Source of the DNA: Chlamydiota bacterium
Lineage (GTDB): Bacteria; Chlamydiota; Chlamydiia; Chlamydiales; JABHNK01
NCBI GenBank assembly: GCA_051744985.1
Contig: JBNJDP010000002.1
Location: 597 to 64,596 of the forward strand
DNA: 64,000 nt
Direction of reading: 5' to 3'
The position numbers and the translations under genes were made by a program. Shown piece by piece: positions 8,260 through 42,642 of this stretch. How positions within the stretch are numbered: position 1 is the stretch's first letter; every line of letters starts with the position of its first letter. The notes below the pieces were generated by a model. That model was not told the origin of the DNA, ran no database searches, and worked only from the letters and a program-made list of their open reading frames with translations.

Positions 8260-9555
8260 ATGCCTAAATGCCTTTTCTTGCTATTAGCTTTCATAGGATT
8301 ATACCTTCCAGGGGAAAGCGCTAACAATGACAGCAATATCAATTGCTGGGCTGTAGTGGTCGTGCCAGTAGCGGATGTGTTAGATGAACCACCTCCTTAT
8401 GGGGGAGCTCCTGAACGTTATCTCGATTTACCATATAACTGGGTTTACTCTCCTAGCTATGATCGCCCGCGCTTCCATCAGCTTCTTTTTAATCAGTTGG
8501 TGAAAATTGTCGCCGAAGAAAACCACGAGTATAAGGTAGAGATAACCAATCTATATTATCAGACCTTAGAGAGCAGGGAAGCTCATACCTTCGAAGGCTG
8601 GATTTTATCAGAAGGGGTAGTGAAACTAAACCACCTTATCAAAAAGAAGCTAGACCTGAAACGTTTACCCTGTAATCTACCAGGGCAAGGTGAGCAAGAT
8701 ATAATATCTCTCACCAGCCCTTATTATAGTGCCGCTCAAGAAAAACTTTATTCTGCCGGAACACGTTTTGTTTTGGCGAAAGAAAAAGCTGATAGTTTCA
8801 TTGTCTATGGTTTACAACCAGAATCTTTAGATTATCAGACCCTGAAGGTGCCGAAATCCCTAGCTCTACGCAATAAAACAGCCTCTATTGACCAAAAGAT
8901 TCAAACCTATATTTCCTTAATACAAGAATGGTCTACACTAGAAGAGGGGATTATCCCTTATTTACAAGGAGGGGCTAGCTGGACGAAGAGCCATTATAAC
9001 CGAGAGGCGGTCAAACGCCCTCTTTTTGATACTAATGGTCAACCAGTATATGAGAATGGAAATAAGCGCTATGGTTATTACCGTTTAGAAGATTTTGGCG
9101 ATCCACGAACAGGGTTAGATTGTTCTTCAATTATATGGCTTGCCGCTCAAACGGTTAATATTCCATATTATTGTAAAAATTCTTCTACGCTTTATCATCA
9201 GCTTAAACCTCTTCAGGTCGGCGACAGCCTCGCCGCCGGAGATATTTTATGGTTTCCTGGTCATGTTATGATCATTAGCCAGCTAAATCCTTTGATGCTT
9301 ATCCAGTCTGAAGGCTATGGGGCTCGCTTGCAGACGGGGTATGTTGCAGAACATGCTGCAGAAAGTCTTTTTCAAGGAATCAATACTCTTTCCGAATTAC
9401 AAAATGCTTATCATTCCCAAGCCTCTTTAAAATTAAAAGGTAGTAGGGGTGAAGTTGCCAAAGAAGTCACTGATTGGCGTTTAATAAAATTTAGAAGCTG
9501 TTGGGATATAGCCGATCAAGCCATGGGAATTTTGCCTGCTTTGAGTTGCGGATAA
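8260..9555 (+). CDS. Secreted NlpC/P60-family peptidase
   Basis: Signal peptide. The C-terminal domain has GLDCSSIIWLAAQ (catalytic Cys) followed by GDILWFPGHVMIIS (His), the canonical NlpC/P60 order. Confidence 0.7.
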   Translation: MPKCLFLLLAFIGLYLPGESANNDSNINCWAVVVVPVADVLDEPPPYGGAPERYLDLPYNWVYSPSYDRPRFHQLLFNQLVKIVAEENHEYKVEITNLYYQTLESREAHTFEGWILSEGVVKLNHLIKKKLDLKRLPCNLPGQGEQDIISLTSPYYSAAQEKLYSAGTRFVLAKEKADSFIVYGLQPESLDYQTLKVPKSLALRNKTASIDQKIQTYISLIQEWSTLEEGIIPYLQGGASWTKSHYNREAVKRPLFDTNGQPVYENGNKRYGYYRLEDFGDPRTGLDCSSIIWLAAQTVNIPYYCKNSSTLYHQLKPLQVGDSLAAGDILWFPGHVMIISQLNPLMLIQSEGYGARLQTGYVAEHAAESLFQGINTLSELQNAYHSQASLKLKGSRGEVAKEVTDWRLIKFRSCWDIADQAMGILPALSCG

Positions 9556-9601
9556 TCAAAATTTCCATTAACGTAAAGTTAAATTTTATATTGGAGGTAA
9601 A

Positions 9602-18986: not shown

Positions 18987-19149
18987 AATAAACTCTCATC
19001 TTTATAAAAAGTTGCCGTATTATATAAAATAATAGGAAAAAAAGACAATCCCACTGCAAGGTCTGATAATCTAGAAAAAGCTTTTCTTGCATAATAATTA
19101 TCATTTCTCTTTAAATAAAAAGTAGCATCTATTTTGGAGGTAAAGCTAT

Positions 19150-19446
19150 ATGTGGAGAGCATTTCTAGCTATATGTGCTTTAAGCGCAGCAGGCGGTTAT
19201 TCAGAGGTTATAGACCTAAAATATTCACCCAAATTAAAAGTGAAGACAATTTTACTAGATCACGGAACCCGTGATCCTACGAGGCCTATCGAAGACATCG
19301 AAGTTAAGGGATATACTATCCATGATGTAAAGATTATTGCTGGCGATGACAAGGGGTTACCTGAGACATTGGTTATCACCTACCATGAAAGGGCTAATTA
19401 TCCACAGGTCAACCAAGGGCAATCTAATCCTGACAGTTACCGTTAA
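19150..19446 (+). CDS. Small secreted hypothetical protein
   Basis: ggagg lies 9 nt upstream. The N-terminus MWRAFLAICALSAAGG is signal-peptide like. Confidence 0.5.
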   Translation: MWRAFLAICALSAAGGYSEVIDLKYSPKLKVKTILLDHGTRDPTRPIEDIEVKGYTIHDVKIIAGDDKGLPETLVITYHERANYPQVNQGQSNPDSYR

Positions 19447-19460
19447 TAAGGATACTAGAC

Positions 19461-20399
19461 GTGACAACTCCTGAGGTTTCCAACACAGATCCCTTATCAG
19501 CCCATAATGTTCATATGCTAGGGCGTCAAGATAAGTTAGAGGATTTAGAGGACTTCCCCCCTATCCCGACAGCGATGGTTTTACCCCATGGTACGACATA
19601 TCATGTGACGGTACGCCATTTAAAGCGTAAGAAGCTCAAGAAATTGATAGTACGTCGCAGGAAAGAAGGAAGAAAGCGAAAAAGATATTATGATGATCTC
19701 GTTTCTATGGAGGAGACTGCCGACAAGACTGATGATGTCTTTTTCTTTTTCATTTATAATGTTTTTGCTGGAAGTCAGGACACCTCACAAAAATTCAAAC
19801 GTTTAGCAAAGTGGCTCCGCTTGAGGGCTGTCGACGAACAAAAAGCACTAGAATATGAAGCTAGGTGTAAGAGGGAAGATTCTTTAAAAGACATCCGCAA
19901 ATTTTGGCAAGCTATTTTTGCCCGCGAAATGTTGACAATTAAAGATCATGCCCAAGCAGGTTCTATCGCTGTTAACCTGTCGCAATTGCGCCAAAATATC
20001 TATGATGACCTAGAAGATTTTTTCAAAACTTCTACGTGGGATAAAATTTGCGAAAAATATAGCATTGACCCTTTGTCAACGGCTTGGTTCGGTGAAGACA
20101 ACCATTATTTGATGGAAGAATTCAAAAGCTTTATGCTAAAAAAGTATAAAACCGCGCTCTTGGATCGCTATAAAACCCTACTCTCGACCTCTGTTAAAAA
20201 CCCTAAAGACCCCCTATACTCCCCTGTTATTGAAAAATTCAAGGTCAGCGTCGAGCGAGCCCTCAAAGCATACCTCAATGAGATTTTGAAGGTCGAAAAC
20301 GCCTACTACCAAGACATACAAAAAATTGCCGAACGCCAAACTTCCCCCAGCTTGTTACCAAAAGTCCTCTCTCTCTCCCAAAAGCTTGGACTTTTTTAA
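19461..20399 (+). CDS. Hypothetical protein with strongly basic NLS-like cluster
   Basis: GTG start 14 nt after the upstream stop. Contains RHLKRKKLKKLIVRRRKEGRKRKRYY (about 19614-19695); the rest is helical. Confidence 0.55.
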   Translation: MTTPEVSNTDPLSAHNVHMLGRQDKLEDLEDFPPIPTAMVLPHGTTYHVTVRHLKRKKLKKLIVRRRKEGRKRKRYYDDLVSMEETADKTDDVFFFFIYNVFAGSQDTSQKFKRLAKWLRLRAVDEQKALEYEARCKREDSLKDIRKFWQAIFAREMLTIKDHAQAGSIAVNLSQLRQNIYDDLEDFFKTSTWDKICEKYSIDPLSTAWFGEDNHYLMEEFKSFMLKKYKTALLDRYKTLLSTSVKNPKDPLYSPVIEKFKVSVERALKAYLNEILKVENAYYQDIQKIAERQTSPSLLPKVLSLSQKLGLF

Positions 20400-20557
20400 C
20401 CTGCGGTTTGTGATACAACCTTTGAACTGACATGGTTGAAAACCATTTTAACCTTCTTTTTAGTCATAACGATTAAAAAATGCTGGCTAATAAATTACCT
20501 CTTCTCCTACATTGTTCGACTTGATTTTTGTTATAAATATATGGAGTATAGCTTATT

Positions 20558-21313: not shown

Positions 21314-21345
21314 GCGATTTGCAATAATTGTCAAAAAGCAATATT

Positions 21346-21375
21346 ATGCGTCTCTTGATGAGGCGCATTTTTTTT
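21346..21375 (+). terminator. Rho-independent terminator after the OMP gene
   Basis: atgcgtctc (21346-21354) pairs with gaggcgcat (21360-21368), followed by a T8 run. Confidence 0.7.
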
Positions 21376-21386
21376 GGAGGAATTTT

Positions 21387-22936: not shown

Positions 22937-23034
22937 TCCTTCATTATTTTACCCACCTGTGATAGTAAAAACCTCTGCTGGCCCTAAAGCTAGCAGAGGT
23001 TTTCTTTAACCTCACAGAAGAATAGACTTTTTAT

Positions 23035-23316: not shown

Positions 23317-23418
23317 AATATCCTCCCATAAAATGATTAAAATATAATGCCAAACCTTTTAGATTAGATTTATGGCAAACCGTAATTTCAACTTAACAGA
23401 TAAAGAATTTAATACAAA

Positions 23419-25071: not shown

Positions 25072-25096
25072 AAAACGATGATTTATCAGATAGCTA

Positions 25097-27670: not shown

Positions 27671-27749
27671 AATTTTCCGCCATGTATGTATTAGGTTAAA
27701 AATGAAGCTTTATGTTATCATCGGGTTTTAATTTAAGCAAGACTTAGGT

Positions 27750-29693: not shown

Positions 29694-30295
29694 CCCCTAC
29701 TATCCTCCCCCTTAGCTTTTATCAACGCAGCGATGTCGTCGCTATCAGTAAAGAGCTGCTAGGCAAGACTTTACTGACAGAAATCAATGGCCAGCTTACA
29801 GGAGGAACTATCGTAGAAACCGAAGCTTATGCAGGTCCTGAGGATAAAGCTTGCCATGCCTACGGCAATCGTCGCACCAAACGTACGGAACCTATGTTTC
29901 AGGCTGGCGGCACCTGTTATATTTATACCTGTTATGGTATCCACCTTCTTCTCAATATAGTTACCTATATCGAAGGCATCCCTCATGCCGTTCTTATTAG
30001 AGCGCTAGAACCTACTTTCGGGGTTGAAATGATGCTAAAAAGAAGAAATAAACCCAAATTAGATAGAACATTAACGGGAGGTCCCGGAGCACTTTCCCAA
30101 GCTCTTGGTATTACTAAAGATCTTTCTGGTCAACCTCTGGGCACTACGATCCGAATTAAAGACCACGGCACAGCCATTGCGTCTGATAATGTTATGTCCT
30201 CGCCTCGAGTGGGCATTGCTTATGCCGAAGAAGACGCCTTGCTTCCCTGGCGTTTTCGTATCAAAGACAACCCTTGGACTAGTCCAGCAAAATAG
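29690..30295 (+). CDS. DNA-3-methyladenine glycosylase (Mpg/AAG family)
   Basis: FY.R....VA..LLGK.L, IVETEAY, D.A.H and RT.R...MF..G..YIY..YG are characteristic of the Mpg family. Confidence 0.85.
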   Translation: MTPTILPLSFYQRSDVVAISKELLGKTLLTEINGQLTGGTIVETEAYAGPEDKACHAYGNRRTKRTEPMFQAGGTCYIYTCYGIHLLLNIVTYIEGIPHAVLIRALEPTFGVEMMLKRRNKPKLDRTLTGGPGALSQALGITKDLSGQPLGTTIRIKDHGTAIASDNVMSSPRVGIAYAEEDALLPWRFRIKDNPWTSPAK

Positions 30296-30307
30296 AGAGC
30301 ATTCATT

Positions 30308-31009
30308 ATGAAAAGACATTTTATTACCGGCTTAGCCATTATCACACCTCTCTTTGTCACAATTGCGGTGGTTGTATTTATAGTAAACTTATTGACTGAC
30401 CCCTTTGCAGGAGCAGTCCAGGGATTTCTGCAAGGCAAAGGGCTTCAAAATGCTCGTTTTCTTTTTTTTAGTGGGAATCAATTGGTTAAGTATGGCAGCC
30501 AAGCTATTATCCTCATCATGTTATTTCTCTGCACAGCTCTTCTAGGGCTAGTAGCGCGATGGTTTTTCTTTAAGTCGATCATCAGTTTGGGGGATAAAAT
30601 TATTCACCGCATCCCTGTCATCAACAAGCTCTATAAAACCTCTCAGGATATTGTAACCACTGTCTTTGACTCGCGCGAGAAATCTTTTAACACAGTAGTA
30701 ATGGTACCCTTTCCCAACACTAAAACATATTGTTTAGGTTTTGTTGCGCGCAATGCTCCGGAAAGCTTCAACGCTTCGGTAAACCACACCTTAGTTTCGG
30801 TTTTTGTTCCAACCACTCCCAACCCTACCTCGGGGTATCTCCTAATGTATAAGGAAGAAGAGCTAGTTTATCTAGATATGAAACCCGAAGAGGCTATCAA
30901 ATTCATCATATCCTGCGGAGTCATCCATCCGGAAACAGTACACCATTTAGAAAAGACGCCCAAATCACGCCTCAAAGCACGGTTTAATTTCTCTAAAAAC
31001 AGAGATTAG
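30308..31009 (+). CDS. DUF502-family membrane protein
   Basis: N-terminal TM pair plus the conserved VFVPTTPNPTSGYLLMY segment typical of DUF502. Confidence 0.65.
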   Translation: MKRHFITGLAIITPLFVTIAVVVFIVNLLTDPFAGAVQGFLQGKGLQNARFLFFSGNQLVKYGSQAIILIMLFLCTALLGLVARWFFFKSIISLGDKIIHRIPVINKLYKTSQDIVTTVFDSREKSFNTVVMVPFPNTKTYCLGFVARNAPESFNASVNHTLVSVFVPTTPNPTSGYLLMYKEEELVYLDMKPEEAIKFIISCGVIHPETVHHLEKTPKSRLKARFNFSKNRD

Positions 31010-31158
31010 TTTTTTCAGATTCTTAAGGGTTTGCTTTTTATTAGTATTTCCTATATATTAGCAACTCAGTTTGATAACCACTGGTGGTTGAAGGATAAGA
31101 TCTTCAATCATCGAGCAGAAAAACTGTCTCAACCCTAGGGATAAAGAAGGATAAGATT

Positions 31159-31332
31159 ATGACCAGAGTAGGAAAACAAGAAGAACGACGTCACCGTTCT
31201 CCCCGCAAAAGGAAGGCCCCTTCGATGAAGACCGGCCCTAAAAAAGACAACCTTCCTAAAGGCTTTAAGGAAAGGGAAAATTCATTAGAAGGCGATATCG
31301 CCAAGAATATTTTTATTTCAAAATTTAAATAA
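31159..31332 (+). CDS. Small basic hypothetical protein (57 aa), not in ORF track
   Basis: Hand translation gives MTRVGKQEERRHRSPRKRKAPSMKTGPKKDNLPKGFKERENSLEGDIAKNIFISKFK. An aagga RBS-like element lies upstream. Coding status is uncertain. Confidence 0.35.
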   Translation: MTRVGKQEERRHRSPRKRKAPSMKTGPKKDNLPKGFKERENSLEGDIAKNIFISKFK

Positions 31333-31343
31333 GGTGCTCAAAA

Positions 31344-31502
31344 ATGTCCAGACATCCAAGTTATGGTAGCGGCGACAAAGGCGGAAAAAAGCGCAATGTT
31401 CTTAAGCGTTATGAAAGAGTCGACGTCCTTAAGAAGCTAGGCCGCTGGCAAGAAGGTGAAAACAAGCAGGTTACTGGCCTGCCGAAAACGCCTGTAAAAT
31501 AA
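31344..31502 (+). CDS. PVC-type 'small basic protein' (52 aa), not in ORF track
   Basis: Hand translation gives MSRHPSYGSGDKGGKKRNVLKRYERVDVLKKLGRWQEGENKQVTGLPKTPVK. The pattern S.H.S...KRNVLKR.ER...LKK.G.W..G....GLPKT matches the small basic protein family of Chlamydiae/Verrucomicrobia/Planctomycetes as I recall it. Confidence 0.6.
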   Translation: MSRHPSYGSGDKGGKKRNVLKRYERVDVLKKLGRWQEGENKQVTGLPKTPVK

Positions 31503-31508
31503 TTCTTT

Positions 31509-31528
31509 CCCCGAGTTCTAGCTCGGGG
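31509..31528 (+). terminator. Hairpin after the small basic protein gene
   Basis: ccccgag (31509-31515) pairs with ctcgggg (31522-31528). Only a weak T-tract follows. Confidence 0.4.
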
Positions 31529-31589
31529 CTTGTATCAATATAATTTTGACGCTATAATGGCCTTGTAGCAAACACACCACAAGGTTCTT

Positions 31590-32039
31590 ATGGATATCTA
31601 CGTCGAAAACATCCAAAATAATTATTCCCTCAACACTCACGAAGTAGCTCCTTTAGTTAACAATGTTATCGAATTAGAAGGGCAAAAGTGCGATGAAGTG
31701 GGTATATATTTTGTCGATAGTGCTGAAATAAGCCGCTTACATGATCAATATTTTGACGATCCTTCAACTACTGATTGTATTTCTTTCCCTATAGACCCTC
31801 CTGGCGAGGACCCTAGGTTTTTAGGAGAAGTTTTTGTATGCCCTCAAACTGCCCAAGACTATATTGACGTCCATGGCGGGAATCTCTATGAAGAAATTTC
31901 ACTTTACTTGGTTCATGGTCTTTTGCATCTTTTAGGTTACGATGACTTAACTCCCGAAGACCTTCAAGAGATGCGAGAAGCTGAAAGAAAACATATTGAT
32001 AACCTTAAAGCCAAGAACTTATTGCTTACAGGGAGATGA
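31590..32039 (+). CDS. ybeY: rRNA maturation endoribonuclease YbeY
   Basis: LVHGLLHLLGYDD zinc-binding motif; 149 aa. Confidence 0.9.
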   Translation: MDIYVENIQNNYSLNTHEVAPLVNNVIELEGQKCDEVGIYFVDSAEISRLHDQYFDDPSTTDCISFPIDPPGEDPRFLGEVFVCPQTAQDYIDVHGGNLYEEISLYLVHGLLHLLGYDDLTPEDLQEMREAERKHIDNLKAKNLLLTGR

Positions 32040-33415
32040 TCGATATCATGCTTACTGTTTTTATTTTAACTTTTTTCTTTTTCCTTGGCGCTATTTCAAT
32101 GACTGCTCTTAGCACTGCTTTTCGCAGCTTGCGACGCCATCGTTCGCGCTCAGCTCTCACCAAAATCTGCGGCAAAATTTTTTATCTCCATTTGCAGAAG
32201 CTTCTTTTTGCTAAGAATGATTTCGAGGCTTTATTTTTTGCTGCAATATGGACAAAAAATATTATGCGTTTCTGCTATGCCGGGAGTCTGATAATATTGT
32301 GTTCTCAGCTAGGGATGCTAGAGCTCCCCTCATGGCCTACAGGGTTAGTGGTTTTATTGGGAGAGCAACAGTGGCTTTGGATAGCCATAGTGGTTATTAT
32401 TCTGATCACTTTTTCATTGTTATTGGTAGATTTTTTGCCGAGGGTATGGGCTACTCGCCATCCAATGACGACCCTCCATTATAATTCTCGTTTTGCTTCG
32501 ATATATTTAATTCTATGCTTTCCTATCACCTGTATTTTTTTAATGCTTTTCAAAAAATTCCCTATTTTTGTTTTTGCTGAAAAACTTAAAGCGCCTGCTT
32601 CACGGATCAAAGATAAAATCATCGAGCTCATTCAAGAGGCTGAGCAAACAGAGGCTTTAGCTCCCGAGGAGAAAAAGCTTATCCAATCCGTCATCACATT
32701 CCGCGACAGGATCGTACGTGATATTATGATTCCCAGAGTAAGGATTTTCAGCTTACCAGCTGATACTGCTATCAAAGAAGCTGCTAGGCTTATCGATGCA
32801 GAAGGGTTTAGTAGAATCCCTGTTTACCGCGGCAATATCGACAATATCGTGGGGGTCTTGATGTACAAAGATATCCTAGAGGCTTACACGGAGTGCGAAT
32901 CCCACAACCAAGACTTCGCAAAGCTTGATATGCCTATAGAGAGCCTTGTAAAGAAGGTCCTCTATACCCCTGAGACGAAGAAAGTTTCCCGCCTGTTAAC
33001 GGAATTCCGTAACAAGCAAGTACATTTTGCCGTAGTAGTTGACGAATACGGAGGGACAGAAGGCATCGTCACTATTGAGGATATTTTAGAAGAGATTGTA
33101 GGAGAAATTGCTGATGAATATGATGAGCTCGAGGAAACTTTATTCGTCAAGCAAAGTGATAAAGGGTGGCTCGTCGATGCCAATATGAGCATCATCGATA
33201 TTGAAGAAAAGCTGGGCATTACTATCCCTCAAGACGGTGATTACGATACTCTGGGGGGGTATATATTCTATCGGGCAGGAGCGATACCTCCCAAAGATTT
33301 TATCATCTACCATGACGATTTTGATTTAGAAATCACAGACTCCAACGAGCGCTGTGTTAAAAAGGTGCGCATCACCCCCTCCAAGCGCCTCAAAGAATAT
33401 TCTGGCCACTTATGA
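32036..33415 (+). CDS. CNNM/TlyC-family protein (DUF21 membrane domain, CBS pair, CorC_HlyC)
   Basis: N-terminal TM domain, CBS-pair region (RDIMIPRV....IPVY) and the C-terminal transporter-associated domain. Confidence 0.8.
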   Translation: MIDIMLTVFILTFFFFLGAISMTALSTAFRSLRRHRSRSALTKICGKIFYLHLQKLLFAKNDFEALFFAAIWTKNIMRFCYAGSLIILCSQLGMLELPSWPTGLVVLLGEQQWLWIAIVVIILITFSLLLVDFLPRVWATRHPMTTLHYNSRFASIYLILCFPITCIFLMLFKKFPIFVFAEKLKAPASRIKDKIIELIQEAEQTEALAPEEKKLIQSVITFRDRIVRDIMIPRVRIFSLPADTAIKEAARLIDAEGFSRIPVYRGNIDNIVGVLMYKDILEAYTECESHNQDFAKLDMPIESLVKKVLYTPETKKVSRLLTEFRNKQVHFAVVVDEYGGTEGIVTIEDILEEIVGEIADEYDELEETLFVKQSDKGWLVDANMSIIDIEEKLGITIPQDGDYDTLGGYIFYRAGAIPPKDFIIYHDDFDLEITDSNERCVKKVRITPSKRLKEYSGHL

Positions 33416-34266
33416 GAATACTTGCATTAGGATTATTATTGTTGGGATGGATTGTTATTGGAGATGACGTTGCCCAATGTTCGTCTCTCGATGATATCGA
33501 CAATTGGTTTATTGTCTTAAATGACCAAGGTTCTTCCCCTCTCTCCCCAGAAAAATTCAACAACTATGATATGTGTATCTTAGACCCCGATAGCCATCCT
33601 TCCTATCCTCTCGAAAACTATGAAGGAATAGCAATAGCATATCTTAGTATTGGCAAAGCTGAAGCTAATCGAAGTTACTGGACCAACATTAAAAATGCTT
33701 CCTGGGTTAAAGTTGAGAAAGGCTCGGCTTTCCTTATCGATCTCGACCACCCTCAATGGCAACAAATTTTACTCGAGGATGTTATTCCCGATATCCTTTC
33801 TCAAAATTTTCAAGGCCTTCTCTTGAGTAACCTCGATGCTCCAGAGCAACTTATAGAAAGTTTTCCTGGGCAGTACCCTGAAGGTCACCAAGAAATTCGA
33901 TCATTAATAACTAAAATCCGATCTCATTATCCCCAGCTGCTGCTTATCAGCCATAATGGCTATGACCTCCTTGATGAGCTAGCTCCCAGCCTCGACGGGG
34001 TTTTGGCGGAAGAGGTCCACTCTATGCCCTACTTCGACGACTATTCCTATATAGCTACCCCTCAGGATGTACGTAACTATCGCGTCAACGTCCTTAAAAA
34101 TATCCACGAGCAATACAACCTGCCGATTTTCATTCTGGACTATGCTTCCCACGCTGCACCTCAGGTTATCAGAGAAATTCGAGCTATCTCTTTAGAGGAA
34201 GGCTTCAAACCTTATGTTGCCGAAAAGGGGTTAGCCAAAATTTATGACAACCACCCTAAAAACTAG
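33412..34266 (+). CDS. Secreted TIM-barrel protein, GH114/TM1410-like (putative glycoside hydrolase)
   Basis: Signal peptide. IAYLSIGKAEANRSYW and the following W..L..D pattern resemble the GH114 / endo-alpha-1,4-polygalactosaminidase-like family. Similarity is moderate. Confidence 0.45.
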   Translation: MRILALGLLLLGWIVIGDDVAQCSSLDDIDNWFIVLNDQGSSPLSPEKFNNYDMCILDPDSHPSYPLENYEGIAIAYLSIGKAEANRSYWTNIKNASWVKVEKGSAFLIDLDHPQWQQILLEDVIPDILSQNFQGLLLSNLDAPEQLIESFPGQYPEGHQEIRSLITKIRSHYPQLLLISHNGYDLLDELAPSLDGVLAEEVHSMPYFDDYSYIATPQDVRNYRVNVLKNIHEQYNLPIFILDYASHAAPQVIREIRAISLEEGFKPYVAEKGLAKIYDNHPKN

Positions 34267-34383
34267 TAGGATCCATCCATTAGGCTGTCATGAATTTTAC
34301 TAAATTTAGCTGTTGAAGTTTAGTATATCCAATGATATTCTTAGTACCTTTAGAACTAATAATTATTAGAAGGGCTAAATTAT

Positions 34384-36270
34384 ATGCGTCGTACTATTTG
34401 CTATTGTGAACCTAATGTAGCCGTTGCCGGTGAAATTGCTACCAGAAAATTTATTTACTCTGCCGGAACCGCCCTTCCTAAAGGCACTAAGCTTAAGTTT
34501 GATATTTTAAGCTCGGGCCGCGAAGCAGATTGGGAAGTACCTAGCGCCAACCTCAAAAAAAAGCGCAATGTTATCTATGCTTTACATCAGGATAAAGTAT
34601 TATCAGCCAAAGAGGTAGAAGTCCCCGACAGCATCGTTCCTCAATTTGAGTTTACTCTTCCCAGCGAGCTTAAGGCTGGCCAAGATTTTACAATTATTAT
34701 AGGCAGTCCAGAACAAGATCAACAACCTGACGCCTCTCAAGAAATAGGCAATGGGGCTCAAAACCACAGCCAGCGCCGACGCCCTTTCCATCTTTATATC
34801 GACCCTACAGGTAAAGGACATTACGGAGAACCTGAAATCATCACTATCGACGTAAAAGGCAGCGAGCTATCCTCTATAAGAATTCTAGCTCCTTCTTTTG
34901 TCTCTAAAAACAAACGTTTCGATGTAGTCGTGCGCTTTGAAGACGAGTACGGCAACCTTACCCACAACACCCCTGAAGACACTTTGATAGAACTTACCTA
35001 TGAGCATCTCAGAGAAAACCTCAACTGGAAGCTTTTCGTCCCAGAAACAGGCTTTATCAACCTGCCAAACTTATATTTCAATGAAGAAGGTATCTATCGA
35101 ATCCAGCTTCGCAACGTCAATACCGGTGATGTTTTCTATTCTTGGCCTATCAAGTGTTTTCTCGATAACGATCACCACCTATTTTGGGGCACGCTCCATG
35201 GCGAATCTGAACGCTATGACTCCGATGAAAATGTAGAATCCTGCTTACGATATTTTCGTGATGATCAGTCGTTAAACTTCTATGCCACTTCAAACTTCGA
35301 ATCGGCTGAAGAGACCCCCAATGATATTTGGAAGTCAATATCTCAAAATGTTGTAGACTTCAATGAAGATGAGCGCTTCACCTCCCTGTTGGGAATGCAA
35401 TGGTCTGGAGAAGCCGGCAAAGAAGGTGTACGACAAATCATTTACTCCGGAGACAACAAGCCCCTTTTACGCAAGAAAGAAACTAAATTCAATTCCTTGC
35501 GCAAAATTTATAAGCAGTTTGCCCCTAACGAAATTCTTTCTATACCTTCTTTTACGATGGCTCAAGGTTACCACTATGACTTCGAGCATTATAACCCTGA
35601 TTTCGAGCGCGTAGCAGAAATTTACAACAGCTGGGGATCCTCAGAATGCCCTGTCGAGGAAGAAAATACTGTGCCCATCACATCAGAAAATGGTCAAGGT
35701 ATCTCAGAAACCTCTGAAGGTGCTATCCAAACAGCTCTTCAAAATAACTGCAGGCTAGGCTTTGTAGCTGGCGGCCTCGATGATCGAGGCATTTACTCCG
35801 ATTGCTATGACAATGGCCAAGAACAGTACCCTGCAGGTTTAACAGCTGTTATGGCTCCTGAGCAGTCGCGAGCTGCCATTTTTAAAGCCCTCCAAGACCG
35901 GTCATGCTATGCTACTACTGGGGAGAGGATCTTAATCGGTTTCAATATCGTAGGACAAGAAATGGGCAGCGAAATCAGCACTAAAGATAAGCCTGGCCTA
36001 AAAATCAACCGCCACATTTCAGGCTTTGCCGCCTGCACCGATAAGCTTCTACTGGTAGAAATCATCCGCAACGGTAAAGTTATCAAAATTTTTGAGCCCG
36101 AAAACACTAGCTCTTTTGACTTCACCTTCGATGATATGACTGAACTATCAACAGTTACCCTCGACGGTGGTAAAGGACGCTCACCTTTTGCTTACTATTA
36201 TATCCGTATTATGCAAGAAGATGGTCATATGGCCTGGAGCTCTCCAATTTGGATCGATTTAGAAAGCTAA
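34384..36270 (+). CDS. DUF3604-like protein
   Basis: LFWGTLHGESERYDSDEN resembles WGDLH.H...S.D, and the C-terminal AWSSPIWI resembles the conserved AW.SPIW ending of DUF3604. The HxH metal motif appears degenerate (HGE). Confidence 0.45.
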   Translation: MRRTICYCEPNVAVAGEIATRKFIYSAGTALPKGTKLKFDILSSGREADWEVPSANLKKKRNVIYALHQDKVLSAKEVEVPDSIVPQFEFTLPSELKAGQDFTIIIGSPEQDQQPDASQEIGNGAQNHSQRRRPFHLYIDPTGKGHYGEPEIITIDVKGSELSSIRILAPSFVSKNKRFDVVVRFEDEYGNLTHNTPEDTLIELTYEHLRENLNWKLFVPETGFINLPNLYFNEEGIYRIQLRNVNTGDVFYSWPIKCFLDNDHHLFWGTLHGESERYDSDENVESCLRYFRDDQSLNFYATSNFESAEETPNDIWKSISQNVVDFNEDERFTSLLGMQWSGEAGKEGVRQIIYSGDNKPLLRKKETKFNSLRKIYKQFAPNEILSIPSFTMAQGYHYDFEHYNPDFERVAEIYNSWGSSECPVEEENTVPITSENGQGISETSEGAIQTALQNNCRLGFVAGGLDDRGIYSDCYDNGQEQYPAGLTAVMAPEQSRAAIFKALQDRSCYATTGERILIGFNIVGQEMGSEISTKDKPGLKINRHISGFAACTDKLLLVEIIRNGKVIKIFEPENTSSFDFTFDDMTELSTVTLDGGKGRSPFAYYYIRIMQEDGHMAWSSPIWIDLES

Positions 36271-36350
36271 GCTGCTTCTCACCTTCTTTTTAGCACCGCT
36301 CATTGAGCTTATATTGCTAGCGGCCAGGCGCTAAAAAGCACCTTTTATTA

Positions 36351-36380
36351 CCCCGAGTTTTTAACATAACTCGGGGTTTT
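36351..36380 (+). terminator. Rho-independent terminator
   Basis: ccccgagt (36351-36358) pairs with actcgggg (36369-36376), followed by tttt. Confidence 0.7.
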
Positions 36381-36420
36381 AGTTTGAAAATAAAGATCAA
36401 ATAAAATATAATAGAGACCC

Positions 36421-37170
36421 ATGGATACTTCGAATAGCAAAATAGTAGGTATTATCCCAGCGCGTTATGGGAGCACCCGTTTTCCGGGTAAAATGCTAGC
36501 CGACCTCAAAGGTCAGCCACTAATTCAAAGAACTTATTGTAACGCTCTAAAATGCTCCATACTCGACAAGTTATACGTTGCTACTGACGATAAAAGAATC
36601 TACGACCATGTGCAAAGCTTTGGAGGGTCAGCGATAATGACATCTTCAGAGTGCCCCAGCGGCAGCGATAGGATCCTAGAGGCGCTGCAAAGCACCGCTG
36701 AATTAAGTGATGCTGATATTGTTCTTAACATTCAAGGTGACGAACCTTGTGTTGCCCCTGAAGTTATCACATCTATTGCAGAGCTGTTGATATCAGATTC
36801 CCAAGCTATGATGACCACCCCTGTTACCCCGATACTTAGTGACGAAGAATTCTATAATCCTTCGGTAGTGAAATGCGTGATGGATAACGACTATAATGCA
36901 CTTTTATTTAGCCGAGCCCCCATCCCTTATTTGCGCGACCCTAATACAGCCTTACCTACTGCTTACCGCCATTTAGGACTTTACGCTTTCCGCCATAAAT
37001 TTTTGGTAAAATATAGCAAGCTGTCGCATACCCCTCTCCAGGTTGCAGAAAACTTGGAACAGTTAAAAGTTTTGGAACACGGCTACCGTATAAAGGTAGC
37101 TATAGTTAATGACCGAGGCATCGGTGTCGATGTCCCTGAAGATATAAAAAAGGTTGAGAAATTATTATGA
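36421..37170 (+). CDS. kdsB: 3-deoxy-manno-octulosonate cytidylyltransferase (CMP-KDO synthetase)
   Basis: IIPARYGSTRFPGK.L..L.G.PLIQ, QGDEP, 249 aa. Confidence 0.9.
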   Translation: MDTSNSKIVGIIPARYGSTRFPGKMLADLKGQPLIQRTYCNALKCSILDKLYVATDDKRIYDHVQSFGGSAIMTSSECPSGSDRILEALQSTAELSDADIVLNIQGDEPCVAPEVITSIAELLISDSQAMMTTPVTPILSDEEFYNPSVVKCVMDNDYNALLFSRAPIPYLRDPNTALPTAYRHLGLYAFRHKFLVKYSKLSHTPLQVAENLEQLKVLEHGYRIKVAIVNDRGIGVDVPEDIKKVEKLL

Positions 37171-38783
37171 CTACAAAATACATCTTTTTTACAGGTGGGG
37201 TTTCCTCCTCCTTAGGCAAAGGGCTGACTGCAGCATCGATAGCTACGCTATTGGAACAAAAAGGGCTTAAAATTGCTATGCTCAAGCTCGATCCTTACCT
37301 CAATGTTGACCCCGGCACGATGAGTCCTTACCAGCATGGAGAAGTTTATGTTACTGATGACGGCGCAGAAACTGACCTCGACCTTGGCCATTATTATCGT
37401 TATACTTCGTCCCCTCTTTCAAGAGCTTCTAACGCAACCTCTGGTCAAGTTTACGATACTGTCATCAAAAATGAGCGCCGCGGCGATTACTTGGGGAAAA
37501 CTGTTCAGGTTATCCCTCATATTACCAATGAAATTAAAAGGCGCATTCTAGCTTGCGGCAAACAGAAAAAAGATATCGATATAGTCTTTGTCGAGATAGG
37601 CGGCACTGTTGGAGATATTGAGTCACTACCTTTTATGGAAGCTATCAGGCAATTCCGTTGTGAAAGGCCCCAGGATTGCATCAATATCCACCTTACCTAT
37701 GTTCCTTACTTAAAAGCTGCAGGCGAGCTAAAAACCAAGCCCACCCAGCATTCCATCCAGACTTTACGAGGCATAGGGATTTTCCCTGATATTGTAGTAT
37801 GCCGCAGTGAAAGGACGATTTCCAAAGATGTGAAAGATAAGATTGCCCTTTTCTGCAGCGTTGCTAAAGAAGCTGTCTTCGATGCACAAGATGTTAAACA
37901 CACCATCTACGAGTTGCCTATTGAACTTCATAATCAAAATTTAGATAGTTTTATCTGCCAACAACTTAAAGTTGACGACAGAGATATCGATGTCAAAAAA
38001 TGGGAAAATATCTTGGAAGTCTACAAAAAACCTAAAGGAACGGTAACAGTAGGCATTATAGGAAAGTATGTTTCCCATAGCGATGCATATAAGTCTATCT
38101 ACGAAGCTCTGCGCCACGGAGCCCTTGCCGCCGGATACAAGCTTGAGATTAAGTGTTTCGAATCCCATAAACTTGAACACGGTGAAGATATTGGCGAAGT
38201 TATTAAAGGCTGTGATGGTTACTTGGTGCCCGGAGGCTTTGATGGACGTGGATGGCAAGGCAAAGTGTTAACATCAAAATACTGCCGAGAGAATAAAATC
38301 CCTTACTTTGGTATTTGCCTAGGGATGCAAGCGCTGGTCGTCGACTATGCCCGTTACGCTGCCGGCATTACCAACGCAAACTCCACCGAAATGGATGTCG
38401 ACACAGAAGAGCCCGTTATATCCTTGCTAAGCGAGCAAGAAGACGTTACCGATTTGGGAGGCACTATGCGCTTGGGAGCCTATCCTTGTGTTTTAAAAAA
38501 AGGCAGCAAAAGCGCTAAAGCTTATGGGGCACAAAAAGTTTCTGAACGCCACCGCCATCGTTATGAGTTCAATAACAAATATAAAGAAACTCTCGAAAAG
38601 CAAGGGCTTGATTTTACCGGCATATGGGAAGATGGTAGCTTGTGCGAGATTGCTGAAGTCAAAGAACACCCTTGGATGGTAGGCGTGCAGTACCACCCTG
38701 AATTCAAATCTAAACCTCACGATCCCCATCCGCTTTTCCGAGATTTTGTTAAGGCGATGATCGACCATCAACAAGGAAGATAG
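37167..38783 (+). CDS. pyrG: CTP synthase
   Basis: N-terminus KYIFFTGGVSSSLGKG, the glutamine amidotransferase domain GICLGMQ, and HRHRYEFN. Confidence 0.97.
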   Translation: MTTKYIFFTGGVSSSLGKGLTAASIATLLEQKGLKIAMLKLDPYLNVDPGTMSPYQHGEVYVTDDGAETDLDLGHYYRYTSSPLSRASNATSGQVYDTVIKNERRGDYLGKTVQVIPHITNEIKRRILACGKQKKDIDIVFVEIGGTVGDIESLPFMEAIRQFRCERPQDCINIHLTYVPYLKAAGELKTKPTQHSIQTLRGIGIFPDIVVCRSERTISKDVKDKIALFCSVAKEAVFDAQDVKHTIYELPIELHNQNLDSFICQQLKVDDRDIDVKKWENILEVYKKPKGTVTVGIIGKYVSHSDAYKSIYEALRHGALAAGYKLEIKCFESHKLEHGEDIGEVIKGCDGYLVPGGFDGRGWQGKVLTSKYCRENKIPYFGICLGMQALVVDYARYAAGITNANSTEMDVDTEEPVISLLSEQEDVTDLGGTMRLGAYPCVLKKGSKSAKAYGAQKVSERHRHRYEFNNKYKETLEKQGLDFTGIWEDGSLCEIAEVKEHPWMVGVQYHPEFKSKPHDPHPLFRDFVKAMIDHQQGR

Positions 38784-38787
38784 CTTT

Positions 38788-39222
38788 ATGCCCCAAAGAA
38801 TTGTCGGCGTCGATTATGGAAAAGCACGGATAGGGATAGCACTTTCTGACGAAAGCCAGATGCTAGCCAGCGCTTTTAAAACTATTACTGCGGAAAAAGA
38901 TCTTGGGCTGACAGCGAGCAAGTTCCTGACCGCCCTTCAAGATATTCCCTGTGAGATAGGTAAGATTGTCGTAGGCCTTCCTCTGCAGATGAATGGCCAG
39001 CAAGGCACGATGGCCGACGAAGTTCAGAAATTCATCGACCTTCTTCGAGAAAAGAGCGCTATCCCCATTATTGCCTGGGACGAACGTCTTACTACCCTTC
39101 AGGCTACAAGGTCCATGAAAGAAGGTAAGATGTCCCGCAAAAAACGTTCCAAGGTCATCGACGTTATGAGCGCTGTAATAATCCTGCAAAGCTTCTTGGA
39201 CAGCTCAATATCTATGGCATAG
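38788..39222 (+). CDS. ruvX: Holliday-junction resolvase-like nuclease RuvX/YqgF
   Basis: IVGVDYGKARIGIALSD N-terminal motif; 144 aa. Confidence 0.85.
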   Translation: MPQRIVGVDYGKARIGIALSDESQMLASAFKTITAEKDLGLTASKFLTALQDIPCEIGKIVVGLPLQMNGQQGTMADEVQKFIDLLREKSAIPIIAWDERLTTLQATRSMKEGKMSRKKRSKVIDVMSAVIILQSFLDSSISMA

Positions 39223-39300
39223 GATATTGAGCTGTGTTTGACTCTTAATCGCCATTGAGCTAGAAGAGGTAGTAAAGATACAAAAGGTTAAATATTTTAT

Positions 39301-40848
39301 ATGAAAGCTCCCTCTTTTGAAAACCCTTTGGCAGAAGGTATTTTAACTTCTAAGAAGCTCACCCCGTGCATTATGGTAATCTTTGGTGCTACTGGTGATT
39401 TAGCCCACCGCAAGTTAATGCCAGCACTTTATAATCTTGCCATCGAAGACCGACTGCCTTCACAATTTATCTGTGTAGCCTTTGCTCGCCGCCCTAAAGA
39501 TTCAGAAACCTATCGCCAAGAAGTTCGTAATTCTCTCCAAGAGCATTCACGTTCTCAACCTATCGATGAGAAGGTTTGGGAGGAATTTAGCCAGCGCATT
39601 ATCTACCACCAAGCCGAGCTTGACAATCCCGCGGATTATAGCACTTTAAAATCTCTCTTACAGGATATCGACACCCAATATGGAACCCTGGGTAACCGCA
39701 TATATTACTATTCCATCCCTCCTCAATATTTTACGACTGTTACAGAAAATCTTTTCCACCAGAAGCTTATAGTTGATGAGAAGAGGTTTCAAGAGCCATG
39801 GTCACGAGTTATCATCGAAAAGCCTTTTGGTCACGACCTTAACTCAGCATTAGAACTTCAAAATAATTTATCGCGTTTTTTAACGGAGCAGCAGATCTAT
39901 CGTATTGACCATTATCTTGGCAAAGAGACCATTCAAAATCTTTTGGCCTTCCGCTTTGCTAATTCCTTCTTCGAATCACTTTGGAATAATCGTCATGTTG
40001 ACCATGTGCAGATTACAGTTGCTGAAAACCAGGGTGTTGGCAGTCGCGGACCTTTTTGGGAAAAGACAGGGATGTTACGTGATATTGTTCAAAACCATAT
40101 GATGCAGTTGCTATCGCTTATAGCTATGGAGCCACCGGCAAGCTTGACAGGAGACCCTATCCGCGATGAAAAAGTCAAAGTTTTGTATGCTATCCGCCAA
40201 TTTAACGAAGACGCTCTCAAGCATCACGTCGTTAGAGGACAATACTCGTCGGGCTATATCGAAGGAGAAGAAGTCACCAGCTATCGTGAAGAAGATAAAG
40301 TCCTGCCGGAATCCTCTGCCGAGACATATGTAGCCTTAAAACTTTATATCGACAACCTCCGCTGGGCGGGTGTACCTTTTTATCTAAGAAGTGGTAAAAG
40401 GATGGCTAAGAAGGCTACTGAAGTAGCCATAACCTTTAAAAGCATGCCAGCATTTTTATTTCAGCAATTCAATCAAAAACTCGACAACAACGTCTTAGCT
40501 ATCAGGATACAACCTGATGAAGGTATATCTTTAAAGATCAACACCAAAGTTCCTGGCCAAGCTATGGCAATACAACCTGTCAGGATGGATTTTCGCTACG
40601 GCTCATACTTTGGCGCTGCACCTCCTGAAGCTTACGAACGATTGATCTATGATTGTATGATAGGCGACAACACTCTCTTCATCCGCGATGATGAGACCTT
40701 AGCATCATGGAAATTACTTACCCCTATCCTAGAAGATTGGGATAGCCTCTATCCTCAGGAGTTCCCTAACTACTCATCGGGAAGCTGGGGGCCCGAAGCT
40801 GCCGATACGATGATCGCCCGTGATAGCCGTCAATGGAGGTTGATATAA
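39301..40848 (+). CDS. zwf: Glucose-6-phosphate 1-dehydrogenase
   Basis: IFGATGDLAHRKL, EKPFG, RIDHYLGKE. Confidence 0.97.
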   Translation: MKAPSFENPLAEGILTSKKLTPCIMVIFGATGDLAHRKLMPALYNLAIEDRLPSQFICVAFARRPKDSETYRQEVRNSLQEHSRSQPIDEKVWEEFSQRIIYHQAELDNPADYSTLKSLLQDIDTQYGTLGNRIYYYSIPPQYFTTVTENLFHQKLIVDEKRFQEPWSRVIIEKPFGHDLNSALELQNNLSRFLTEQQIYRIDHYLGKETIQNLLAFRFANSFFESLWNNRHVDHVQITVAENQGVGSRGPFWEKTGMLRDIVQNHMMQLLSLIAMEPPASLTGDPIRDEKVKVLYAIRQFNEDALKHHVVRGQYSSGYIEGEEVTSYREEDKVLPESSAETYVALKLYIDNLRWAGVPFYLRSGKRMAKKATEVAITFKSMPAFLFQQFNQKLDNNVLAIRIQPDEGISLKINTKVPGQAMAIQPVRMDFRYGSYFGAAPPEAYERLIYDCMIGDNTLFIRDDETLASWKLLTPILEDWDSLYPQEFPNYSSGSWGPEAADTMIARDSRQWRLI

Positions 40849-40850
40849 TT

Positions 40851-41906
40851 ATGATATCGGAAAATATACGAGAACAGCTCGACACCTTACACTATCAGCA
40901 TGGCAATAGAACCTTCCTTAGTAACCTGATAGTTTATACAGAAAACCCTCAGCGTGAAGCTCACTTCAAAAGCGTTATTGATAAAGTTATCAAAAAATTC
41001 CCTTCACGGGTATTTTTGATCATCATGGATCTCGAAAGTTGCCATAAGAATTTCGATGTTACCGTAGAAGTTAAGACTATCTCTCAGACTAAAGCCTTGT
41101 GTGATGTAACGACGATCAAAGCTTCTGCACACTATCTCTCGCGCATCTCTTATTTACTTCTCCCCTTCTTAATTCCTGATATGCCTGTCAATATCTTTTG
41201 GTCCCAAGATATTCTCAAGCAATGCTGTCTTTTTACTACCTTAAAGAAAGTCGCTAATCGCATCATTTTCGACTCAGAATCTTGTAGTAATATAAGCCAA
41301 TACAGCAAGGCTTTGCTCAGCCACCTGGAAAAAGCTCCCTACGAGCTATGTGAGATTAACTGGATTCGATTAGGCAGCTGGCGCTATGCTTTTACAAGTG
41401 TTTTTTGCTCTGAAGAACGCATAAACGATCTAAAAAAAAGCAAAGATGTTGCCATAAAATACAACGACTCCTCCGGCGAAAATATCTGTAATGCGAAGAT
41501 TATGGCATTATATCTTCAAGCATGGCTAGCTTCTCAGCTGGGATGGGAATATCATTCTTTATCGGTAAAAGATTCGCATACAGTTTTTCATTATCTTAGA
41601 AATGATAAACGTCCGGTAATGATACATTTAATTACTACCCAAGATTCAGCTCTACCATCAGGAACCGTTACCACTTGCAGTATCACGAGCGATGATGATG
41701 TCTTATATGAAATTCATAGAACACCCCACCACCTTAATGTTAACATCTCTTCTCTCCAACAGTGTAAACTCCCCTACAACATGCCTATTACTCATACCAA
41801 CTGGGAACAAACCTTCTTGGTAGATATGCTATACTCTAAAACTAGCAGCCATTATCGCAACATGTTAAAAGTCCTATCGCAAATAGGTGAAAGCACCCAT
41901 GAATAA
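40851..41906 (+). CDS. OpcA-like putative G6PD assembly protein
   Basis: Sits between zwf and pgl. NLIVYTE....FPSRVFLI resembles the NL.V......HPSR motif of OpcA. The ATG at 40851 is preferred over 40833 because ggagg at 40835-40839 precedes it. Confidence 0.5.
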   Translation: MISENIREQLDTLHYQHGNRTFLSNLIVYTENPQREAHFKSVIDKVIKKFPSRVFLIIMDLESCHKNFDVTVEVKTISQTKALCDVTTIKASAHYLSRISYLLLPFLIPDMPVNIFWSQDILKQCCLFTTLKKVANRIIFDSESCSNISQYSKALLSHLEKAPYELCEINWIRLGSWRYAFTSVFCSEERINDLKKSKDVAIKYNDSSGENICNAKIMALYLQAWLASQLGWEYHSLSVKDSHTVFHYLRNDKRPVMIHLITTQDSALPSGTVTTCSITSDDDVLYEIHRTPHHLNVNISSLQQCKLPYNMPITHTNWEQTFLVDMLYSKTSSHYRNMLKVLSQIGESTHE

Positions 41907-42642
41907 AACGTGGAACAAAAAGATCAAACGTTGGGATTCGCGTCGCCAGATAGCTCTTCCTGGCAACTATGAAACGACGGTAGCTTTTTGTGTAGAGCAT
42001 ATATTGGGAATGGCTCAAGAAGCTATCGACGATCATGGCTATTTTGCGATAGCTCTGTCGGGAGGCAGCACCCCTGAGGCTATCTATAGAGCTATAAGCC
42101 ATCATCCCCATGATATTGATTGGTCAAAGACAAAGCTCTTCTGGAGCGATGAACGCGTTGTCCCTCATAATCACCCTGAAAGCAATTATCATATGGCGAT
42201 GAAATCAGGATTAGAACAGCTTCTCTTAAGGTCTGATAATATATTTAGAATGGACACTGAAAAACCTCCTCATCAAGCTGCTGAAGACTATGAGGTTATG
42301 ATTAAAAATCAGTTGATATCAGGGCGGTTTGACCTAGTAATGCTAGGGATGGGAGAAGATGGCCATACGGCCTCTCTTTTCCCGAAAACCAAGGCCCTTA
42401 ACAGCAATAAGTTAGTAGCAGCTAACTATATCCCTAAACTTAAAAGCTGGCGCTTAACACTTACGATGAAAGCTATCAACCAGTCTCATAAGGCAGCTAT
42501 CTATCTTATGGGAAAATCCAAAGCTGCTACTTTTAAAAAAGTCGTCGATGGCCAGGACCTTCCTATTCAAAAGGTAGGCACTCCCCATTCCCCTGCCCTC
42601 TGGATATTAGATGATGCTGCTAACTCCCTTGCCCAACTATAA
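41887..42642 (+). CDS. pgl: 6-phosphogluconolactonase
   Basis: IALSGGSTP, LFWSDERVVP, LGMGEDGHTASLFP. Confidence 0.9.
   Translation: MKAPMNKTWNKKIKRWDSRRQIALPGNYETTVAFCVEHILGMAQEAIDDHGYFAIALSGGSTPEAIYRAISHHPHDIDWSKTKLFWSDERVVPHNHPESNYHMAMKSGLEQLLLRSDNIFRMDTEKPPHQAAEDYEVMIKNQLISGRFDLVMLGMGEDGHTASLFPKTKALNSNKLVAANYIPKLKSWRLTLTMKAINQSHKAAIYLMGKSKAATFKKVVDGQDLPIQKVGTPHSPALWILDDAANSLAQL

Follow-up and report, generated by a model that had tools for sequence, protein, structure and literature searches.

Locus and terminus

The subject of this report is a repeated decamer, GTCTGATAAT, in a 64-kb window of Chlamydiota DNA (the whole stretch analysed: 64,000 nucleotides of contig JBNJDP010000002.1, assembly GCA_051744985.1). 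Within the window lies the terminus of replication of a Chlamydiota chromosome, with a predicted XerCD-type dif site that was identified from its sequence and its match to published chlamydial sites. As read from the sequence, the decamer is the non-XerD (XerC-side) arm of dif together with the first base of the central region. Besides the copy in dif there are ten accessory copies, which are arranged around dif with strict polarity. Two features define the terminus:

14270 to 14297, minus strand: complete 28-bp predicted dif, ACGTCTGATAA-TAACCG-TTATGTTGCGC (11-6-11)
13500 to 14500, no strand: turning zone of GC skew, positive to the left and negative to the right, with the cumulative G-C maximum at 13669 and a plateau to 14.5 kb

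In the dif site a 6-bp centre separates two 11-bp arms that form an imperfect inverted repeat. The right arm, TTATGTT..., is of the conserved XerD type, and by convention the left arm is therefore called XerC-side. The decamer copy at 14288-14297 coincides with this left arm and the first central-region base, and among the 11 copies of the decamer it alone has a second arm at 6-bp spacing. The site is also the only ATAA-N5-7-TTATG sequence with this arm in the window, which thus holds a single full dif-like site.

Predicted dif sites of chlamydiae have been tabulated in the supplement of Kono 2011 (PMC3025954). The listed sites are ACGTCTGATAATATGTATTATGTTGAAT for C. abortus, TGGTCTGATAATATGTATTATGTTGCAT for C. 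caviae, AGGTCTGATAATATTCATTATGTTGCAT for C. felis, AGGTCTGATAATATTTATTATGTTGAAT for C. trachomatis and C. muridarum, AAGTCTGATAATTGTTATTATGTTGCAT for C. pneumoniae and ACGTCTGATAACATATGTTATGTTTCTT for Protochlamydia amoebophila. Published positions of dif are 194,922 in C. trachomatis D/UW-3/CX, 536,430 in C. muridarum, 208,353 in C. pneumoniae CWL029 and 1,091,346 in P. amoebophila. The window sequence at 14262-14300 aligns with nine chlamydial dif predictions in the common pattern (A/G)(C/G)GTCTGATAAT...TTATGTTG. These nine predictions have GTCTGATAA(T/C)-N5-TTATGTT in common, and the phylum-wide consensus of the arm and the adjoining centre is GTCTGATAA-TAT.

Most of the skew turning zone falls within a stretch of about 900 bp without an open reading frame (ORF) of at least 100 aa (13592-14487). 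A first-pass annotation of this DNA had proposed either a replication origin or a terminus/dif-type switch in the gap at 13.6-14.5 kb and had suggested overlaying GC skew as a check. The terminus has been borne out: a complete dif lies at 14270-14297, and the cumulative G-C maximum at 13669, with its plateau at 13.5-14.5 kb, is located at the strand switch of the decamer. The origin alternative falls, since a skew that passes from positive to negative, with a cumulative peak, marks a terminus and not an origin.

Abundance and polarity of the decamer

The decamer occurs in 11 exact copies on the two strands of the window, compared with a mean of 0.14 and a maximum of 1 in 100 dinucleotide shuffles and with 0.15-0.33 copies predicted by Markov models of orders 1-5, so that the excess is about 70-fold. 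On the minus strand the copies start at 8555, 8831, 12438 and 14288, and on the plus strand at 14471, 15961, 17046, 19061, 30181, 32286 and 42231. The polarity is without exception, the four copies up to position 14297 all being on the minus strand and the seven from 14471 rightwards all on the plus strand. If dif is taken as the fixed switch point, ten of ten accessory copies are correctly oriented (p ~1e-3). One-mismatch variants number five, which is the chance number, and show no polarity; the signal therefore resides in the exact word.

The over-representation reported in the first-pass annotation was confirmed by these counts, including the Markov comparison that it had recommended. The word was real, but its tally of nine copies was too low, having missed 8555-8564 (minus strand) and 17046-17055 (plus strand), both of which conform to the polarity. 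Its placing of the copy at 12439-12448 was off by one (correctly 12438-12447), while its other decamer coordinates and those of the four 12-mers GGTCTGATAATC stand. The switch that it had put at 14.3-14.47 kb is obeyed by all 11 copies, the two added ones included, and its reservation that so few sites might be polar by chance no longer holds at ten of ten accessory copies.

The accessory copies are also clustered, with seven of the ten less than 6 kb from the switch (p ~6e-4). None occurs in 1-8554 or in 42241-64000, and none is more than 28 kb from dif. One by one, with distances measured to dif at 14270-14297, they are:

8555 to 8564, minus strand: half-site, 5.7 kb from dif, antisense in the orphan ORF 8260-9555
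8831 to 8840, minus strand: half-site GGGTCTGATAATCT, 5.5 kb from dif, antisense in ORF 8260-9555
12438 to 12447, minus strand: half-site GGGTCTGATAATCT, 1.85 kb from dif, intergenic between an ankyrin-repeat gene and a Glu/Leu/Phe/Val-dehydrogenase-family gene
14471 to 14480, plus strand: innermost half-site AGGTCTGATAATCA, intergenic, just beyond the stop codon of a 1110-aa ORF
15961 to 15970, plus strand: half-site, 1.7 kb from dif, antisense in the 1110-aa orphan ORF
17046 to 17055, plus strand: half-site, 2.8 kb from dif, antisense in the 1110-aa orphan ORF
19061 to 19070, plus strand: half-site AGGTCTGATAATCT, 4.8 kb from dif, in a divergent intergenic region
30181 to 30190, plus strand: half-site, 15.9 kb from dif, sense in a DNA-3-methyladenine glycosylase gene, encoding S-D-N
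32286 to 32295, plus strand: half-site, 18 kb from dif, sense in a CorC/CNNM-family gene, in another frame than the 30181 copy
42231 to 42240, plus strand: outermost half-site, 27.9 kb from dif, sense in pgl, encoding R-S-D-N

The innermost half-site at 14471 is inverted with respect to the XerC-side arm of dif, and 173 bp separate the two decamers. Three of the copies are intergenic (12438, 14471 and 19061) and seven lie inside ORFs, in several frames and in both sense and antisense orientation. This is the context that the first-pass annotation had described, and since several frames, both strands and intergenic DNA are involved, a protein motif can be rejected. Conserved housekeeping genes hold three copies, namely those for 3-methyladenine glycosylase, the CorC/CNNM-family protein and 6-phosphogluconolactonase (pgl), and there is no insertion at the site in these genes; for example, pgl homologues of other chlamydiae have KDH, QEN or PEN at the position of RSDN, with no gap. 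A promoter, for which the -10-like GATAAT might be taken, was also rejected, as the copies often run antisense to transcription and their identity, exact in ten of ten, is far stricter than that of promoters.

The flanks of the copies had been called unrelated, which is correct for most of them and incorrect for one pair, 8538-8570 and 12421-12453, with 79% identity over 33 nt. This likeness, statistically marginal, includes TGGTTAnCTCT, six bases past the decamer, and may reflect common descent or a longer recognised element. Similarly, the claim that the word is not part of a longer element fails for the 14288 copy, which lies inside the 28-bp dif.

The excess, the exactness, the variety of frames, strands and intergenic positions and the intact conserved genes demonstrate that the half-sites are non-random and selected at the DNA level. 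A chance origin of the copies is excluded by the excess of about 70-fold together with the polarity of ten in ten. The same observations bear on the idea that the copies are non-functional by-products, that is, chance words or relics of dif duplication or of Xer-mediated integration and excision of integrative mobile elements exploiting Xer (IMEX). The terminus is plastic, with orphan ORFs around dif, the 1110-aa ORF without a homologue and a dehydrogenase gene beside dif that is not Chlamydiota-like, and many viral contigs carry the same dif core (see below), so such elements do exist. Relics of IMEX would, however, lie on one side of dif as directly oriented full or hybrid sites, a pattern that viral contigs illustrate with their direct upstream copies (7:12 with respect to the window polarity). 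The window has half-sites only, its seven right-hand copies are inverted relative to dif, and several copies lie in frame in intact conserved genes with no insertion. As such, the by-product reading is extremely improbable and close to refuted.

Half-site structure and the comparison with guide words

The ten accessory copies are isolated half-sites (type GGTCTGATAATAT) with the consensus rGTCTGATAATmT and no partner arm. Conservation runs from a G at position -1 (7/10) through ten invariant bases, the first central base being T in 10/10, to a T two positions further on (9/10). A half-site thus comprises the arm and about three bases of the central region, following the GTCTGATAA-TAT consensus, and this conservation would be of the footprint type of a tyrosine recombinase monomer. 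The XerD-arm word TTATGTTG has six copies in the window, of mixed orientation and not enriched.

In GTCTGATAAT the 5' G is the outer end of the arm and the 3' TAAT is the inner end, which abuts the central region. The outer end is directed to dif in every accessory copy on both sides, and the inner end to the origin side. Read 5' to 3', ATTATCAGAC points toward dif on the leading strand of both replichores.

This is the layout of a guide word, and the first-pass annotation had likened the decamer to Chi and to the FtsK-orienting polar sequences (KOPS). The comparison stands as regards polarity relative to the replichores and fails in that the word is a dif arm, clustered near dif and not spread over the 64 kb. 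Chi sequences are 5-8 nt long and chromosome-wide, which does not agree with a word of 10-13 nt clustered at dif. In a KOPS-like guide, the gamma domain of FtsK would read ATTATCAGAC on the leading strand and be steered to dif, and that the word equals the recombinase arm would be due to coincidence or co-evolution. The perfect replichore polarity (10/10 toward dif), reading 5' to 3' on the leading strand as in E. coli KOPS, is what this reading predicts, and copies of the same polarity occur at non-conserved positions in other chlamydial loci near the terminus (see below). KOPS density, too, climbs toward dif. Against a guide, the outer 22 kb on the right and the outer 8.5 kb on the left are empty while seven of the ten copies are within 6 kb of dif, so that in this local 64-kb test the word is not frequent along the replichores. 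Its 10-13 bp of exact information exceed the 7-8 bp of the KOPS and SpoIIIE recognition sequence (SRS) words of E. coli, B. subtilis and L. lactis, and it includes central-region bases of a recombinase site.

Furthermore, the niche of a guide appears to be filled by another word, GTCGATA, which has 27 sites dispersed from 9925 to 62396, 25 toward dif and 2 away (binomial p 2.8e-6; ~0.008 when corrected for 2857 words). It is about 3-fold over-represented, at about 1 per 2.5 kb, and absent between 12 and 26.8 kb. Its orientation tracks the replichore and not the gene strand, its single-substitution neighbours are unskewed, and its skew is absent from other dif loci (34:41). Judged by its distribution, GTCGATA is a candidate word of the KOPS or architecture imparting sequence (AIMS) kind for this lineage, separate from the dif-arm word. 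Taken together, a guide function of the decamer itself seems unlikely.

Over the whole window, two G-rich heptamers are also directed toward dif (AGGGGAG 12:0 and AGAGGGG 11:0) and resemble classical purine-rich polar words.

Recurrence in other DNA

A metagenome scan for the core GTCTGATAAY-N5-TTATGTT provided 120 contigs (669 kb, GC 0.26-0.68), which indicates that this type of dif is widespread well beyond Chlamydiota; none of these loci has genes in common with the window. The exact 9-mer GTCTGATAA was found 13 times outside the core, 12:1 in favour of the window polarity, where about 4.5 copies would be expected in total. The copies in L024 and L087 look homologous, leaving about 11 independent cases among the twelve. 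Extra exact 10-mers were 6:0 for the window polarity, and XerD-arm words showed neither excess nor polarity in the 120 contigs. One contig, L040, has an overlapping head-to-head double half-site, TTATCAGTCTGATAAT, about 216-232 bp past its dif.

As a control, 120 viral contigs with the same core (IMG/VR, L141-L260, 1.05 Mb) were examined, and their extra copies were 7:12, demonstrating that a window-like polarity is not inherent in the sequence pattern itself. Several of the viral copies are direct repeats of the arm upstream of the core, some of them 240-570 bp away. At least 120 viral contigs have the core, which suggests that Xer sites of this type are exploited by many phages or integrative elements.

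Several loci have an inverted half-site close to dif, which bears on a third possibility, that of an accessory site controlling recombination at dif. Here mainly the innermost copy, about 175 bp from the XerC-side arm, would matter, and a looped or interwrapped synapse would provide selectivity of resolution. An inverted half-site is found on the XerC-arm side at offset -182 in the window and -185 in L011, although the DNA in between cannot be aligned. Three high-GC contigs (L018, L086 and L037; GC 0.63-0.68) have an inverted GTCCGATAAT or the near-copy AACGTCCGATAAT at 42-63 bp from the same arm, and near-matches within 1.5 kb on that side favour the inverted orientation by 7:1. However, the copies at 1.7-28 kb and those on the XerD-arm side are left unexplained, the spacing of about 180 bp is common to two loci only, and L011 resembles a mobile element, with primase- and excisionase-like ORFs as judged from their translations. 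Accessory control of this kind is therefore given only a slim chance of being the main explanation.

In the Chlamydiota, seven kdsB-pyrG-ruvX loci (145 kb), syntenic with the right flank of the window and oriented as the window, contain seven copies of GTCTGATAA where 1.1 would be expected. Six of the seven are on the window strand, and the seventh is half of a palindrome in L134. The exact 10-mer is 3:0. No full dif was found in these seven loci, and neither dif nor a half-site in the fpg-leuS-rnr locus of Parachlamydia and another fpg locus. Conservation in relatives, which the first-pass annotation had proposed as a check, is thus seen in the polar extra copies of other kdsB-pyrG loci and not in their positions. 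The palindrome in L134 (7482-7499), a 1.34-Mb chlamydial contig, is a perfect head-to-head arrangement, TTATCAGACGTCTGATAA, with abutting outer ends; it lies in a peptidase gene, and a third copy is 80 bp away.

Proposed role of the half-site array

On balance, we lean toward the explanation that the window contains an oriented array of accessory half-sites which would act on the translocases of the terminus much as the XerD/XDS sites do in Bacillus. Going by the identity of the arm, each half-site would most likely be occupied by a single monomer of whichever Xer recombinase recognises the arm. Having no partner arm, the half-sites cannot be recombined. With all outer ends facing dif and all inner ends the origin side, monomers on these sites would give two opposing groups of oriented protein-DNA landmarks, most crowded beside dif. 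A machine heading to the terminus on either arm of the chromosome would always meet the inner face first, and one departing from the dif zone would always meet the outer face first. The array could then stop or unload DNA translocases at the terminus, be it FtsK, SMC-ScpAB if the lineage has it, or both, and these would be kept at, or barred from crossing, the few kb around dif where dimer resolution occurs.

Studies in other bacteria offer precedents for such effects. FtsK is stopped by XerCD-dif in vitro, and a single recombinase on a half-site acts as an orientation-dependent roadblock (PMC2800217). The outer face of XerD halts FtsK about 5-fold better than the inner face, and with Cre the outer face stops 42% and the inner face 13%, a difference of about 3-fold (PMC2800217). 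In B. subtilis, as related in the citing papers, XerD at dif-like XDS sites in the terminus unloads SMC-ScpAB (Karaboja 2021 via PMC11840125, PMC10945525). According to the same papers, several XDS sites are thought to be necessary because SMC takes large steps, and in E. coli the density of matS increases toward dif (PMC11840125, PMC10945525).

From such face-dependent effects a more specific mechanism can be drawn, in which the inner faces would be permissive to a translocase bound for dif and the outer faces non-permissive to one that overshoots, giving a two-sided trap on dif. Alternatively, SMC complexes on their way from the origin would encounter one and the same face of the bound protein, whichever arm they travel on. 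A polar two-sided trap of Xer monomers with the enter-not-leave logic of Tus-Ter, acting on FtsK, SMC or even replication forks, is a tentative version, to which we give well below even probability.

A trap for replication forks proper has also been considered, in which an Xer monomer or another terminator protein would let forks enter and not leave, in the manner of Tus-Ter or RTP-Ter. The opposed polar groups on the skew switch, the inverted innermost pair 173 bp apart and a density that falls outward are all features of such a trap. No Tus- or RTP-like gene was found, however, among the ORFs of at least 100 aa that were scanned in the window (less one 119-aa ORF at 47920-48279 and four nested overlapping ORFs, which with shorter ORFs stand outside the scan), there is no Ter consensus, and the identity of the sites with a dif arm points to Xer. 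To our knowledge, tyrosine recombinases on half-sites do not arrest replisomes. A fork trap is accordingly rated very unlikely.

Several points weigh against the proposed action of Xer proteins on terminus translocases. Binding of Xer to the half-sites is predicted only, for an organism known as an uncultured metagenome-assembled genome (MAG), and the repeated arm is the XerC-side one, unlike the XerD arm of the Bacillus XDS sites. With the E. coli proteins, XerC by itself showed weak binding to its arm and failed to stop FtsK (PMC2800217). Genes for xerC, xerD, ftsK and smc were not found among the scanned ORFs. The view is of 64 kb of chromosome, with which a low genome-wide density of the word remains compatible. 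The positions of the half-sites are not conserved between chlamydial lineages, a pattern commoner for statistical polar words than for fixed binding sites, and extra half-sites are absent from the short flanks of most other dif-like loci. An array as dense as this one may thus be a peculiarity of the lineage.

Gene content and other features of the window

Among the proteins encoded in the window are a YidC of chlamydial type (NCBIfam PRK01001, 944 bits) and an outer membrane protein of the CT351 family. Its lineage is a deep-branching Chlamydiota MAG, with Fpg at most 54% and KdsB at most 62% identical to any other on record. A megablast search of a plasmid collection gave no match, and a plasmid origin was rejected. 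No tRNA genes were found in the window, nor any Rfam matches near dif.

The genes that flank dif have a foreign or orphan look. The dehydrogenase gene at 12482-13591, of the Glu/Leu/Phe/Val-dehydrogenase family, has its closest genome matches outside Chlamydiota, in MAGs of Bdellovibrionales (61%), and for the 1110-aa ORF (14488-17820) a set of 5.8 billion proteins contained no homologue apart from the ORF itself. Genes of the PP2C phosphatase and ankyrin-repeat kinds are nearby, giving the region the appearance of a plasticity zone. To the right of dif, nearly all genes at 19461-42642 are on the plus strand and hence head-on to the replication fork, if its direction is taken from GC skew and polar words; it is unusual for 20-45 kb beside a terminus to be oriented head-on.

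The order kdsB-pyrG-ruvX-zwf-opcA-pgl...tsaD (36421-47733) is conserved in distant chlamydial genomes (L134-L140). We take the kdsB-...-pgl cluster to be CT182-CT186 of C. trachomatis, which by our estimate is about 10 kb from the dif of that species (194,922). The position of the kdsB-pyrG cluster near the terminus may be ancient.

At the right end of the window (63456-64000, minus strand) there is a CRISPR array with 28-nt repeats, GTTCACTGCCGYACAGGCAGCTTAGAAA, that match Rfam CRISPR-DR4. Rfam scored three of the repeats, and the sequence itself reveals a fourth, truncated where the window ends; the first (63456) stands alone, 374 bp from the rest. The repeats are presumably of type I-F. CRISPR is uncommon in Chlamydiota.

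Significance

A literature search for the decamer returned unrelated matches only, mostly SARS-CoV-2 N gene sequences. The chlamydial dif was predicted in 2011 and XDS sites were described in 2021, while in the literature, to which we had limited access, nothing was found on exact XerC-side half-sites forming an oriented array around dif in Chlamydiota. Chlamydiae divide without FtsZ, and little is known of their terminus organisation and segregation. The analysis locates the terminus and dif of this MAG and tells the dif-arm word apart from the KOPS-like candidate GTCGATA. The array suggests a built-in directional marker system for the terminus of an uncultured chlamydia-like bacterium, and it offers a testable hypothesis in which Xer proteins have a role beyond dimer resolution and in which their orientation matters.

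If this were true, the XerD/XDS idea would apply outside the Firmicutes as well, and would take in both the other arm of dif and a polar layout. In the version with a two-sided trap of Xer monomers, a single protein-DNA code would link dimer resolution to the organisation of the terminus in Chlamydiota and possibly in other phyla with the GTCTGATAA arm. The weaker form of the same signal around dif-like sites of many uncultured lineages suggests that the principle may be widespread.

Comparison with known systems

With chromosomal dif/XerCD sites the copy at 14288 has in common that it belongs to a canonical 11-6-11 dif, which is located at the GC-skew switch and matches the chlamydial predictions. 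The other ten copies differ from these in having no second arm, and are thus not recombination sites.

Plasmid sites such as cer and psi have accessory sequences of about 180 bp beside the XerC side. An extra element at about 180 bp from the core on the XerC side is a likeness that holds for the innermost copy of the window only. The accessory DNA of cer and psi binds PepA with ArgR or ArcA and not a recombinase half-site, whereas the window site is chromosomal and its array reaches over tens of kb.

With Tus-Ter and RTP-Ter the array has in common two opposed oriented groups, an inner inverted pair and a spacing that widens outward. It differs in that the word is unrelated to Ter, no terminator gene lies nearby among the scanned ORFs, and the likely binder would be a tyrosine recombinase.

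Like KOPS, SRS and AIMS, the window word is over-represented, switches strand at dif and reads toward dif on the leading strand. Unlike them, it is confined to about 28 kb around dif (in the 64-kb view), has 10-13 bp instead of 7-8 bp and is identical to a recombinase-binding arm, and GTCGATA is the better KOPS-like candidate.

The closest parallel is with the XDS sites of B. subtilis and S. aureus, as far as these are described in the citing papers. The window differs from them in repeating the XerC-side arm, with no match to the XerD arm, in the exactness of the repeat over 10 bp and in the phylum, Chlamydiota; the strict two-sided polarity is an observation on the window array. In both cases there are several partial dif-like sites outside dif that are confined to the terminus (in the window, ten half-sites within 28 kb), at which a recombinase is presumed to bind without recombination. 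In what those papers report of XDS and of matS/MatP, the logic of many sites with a density rising toward dif is the same as in the window.

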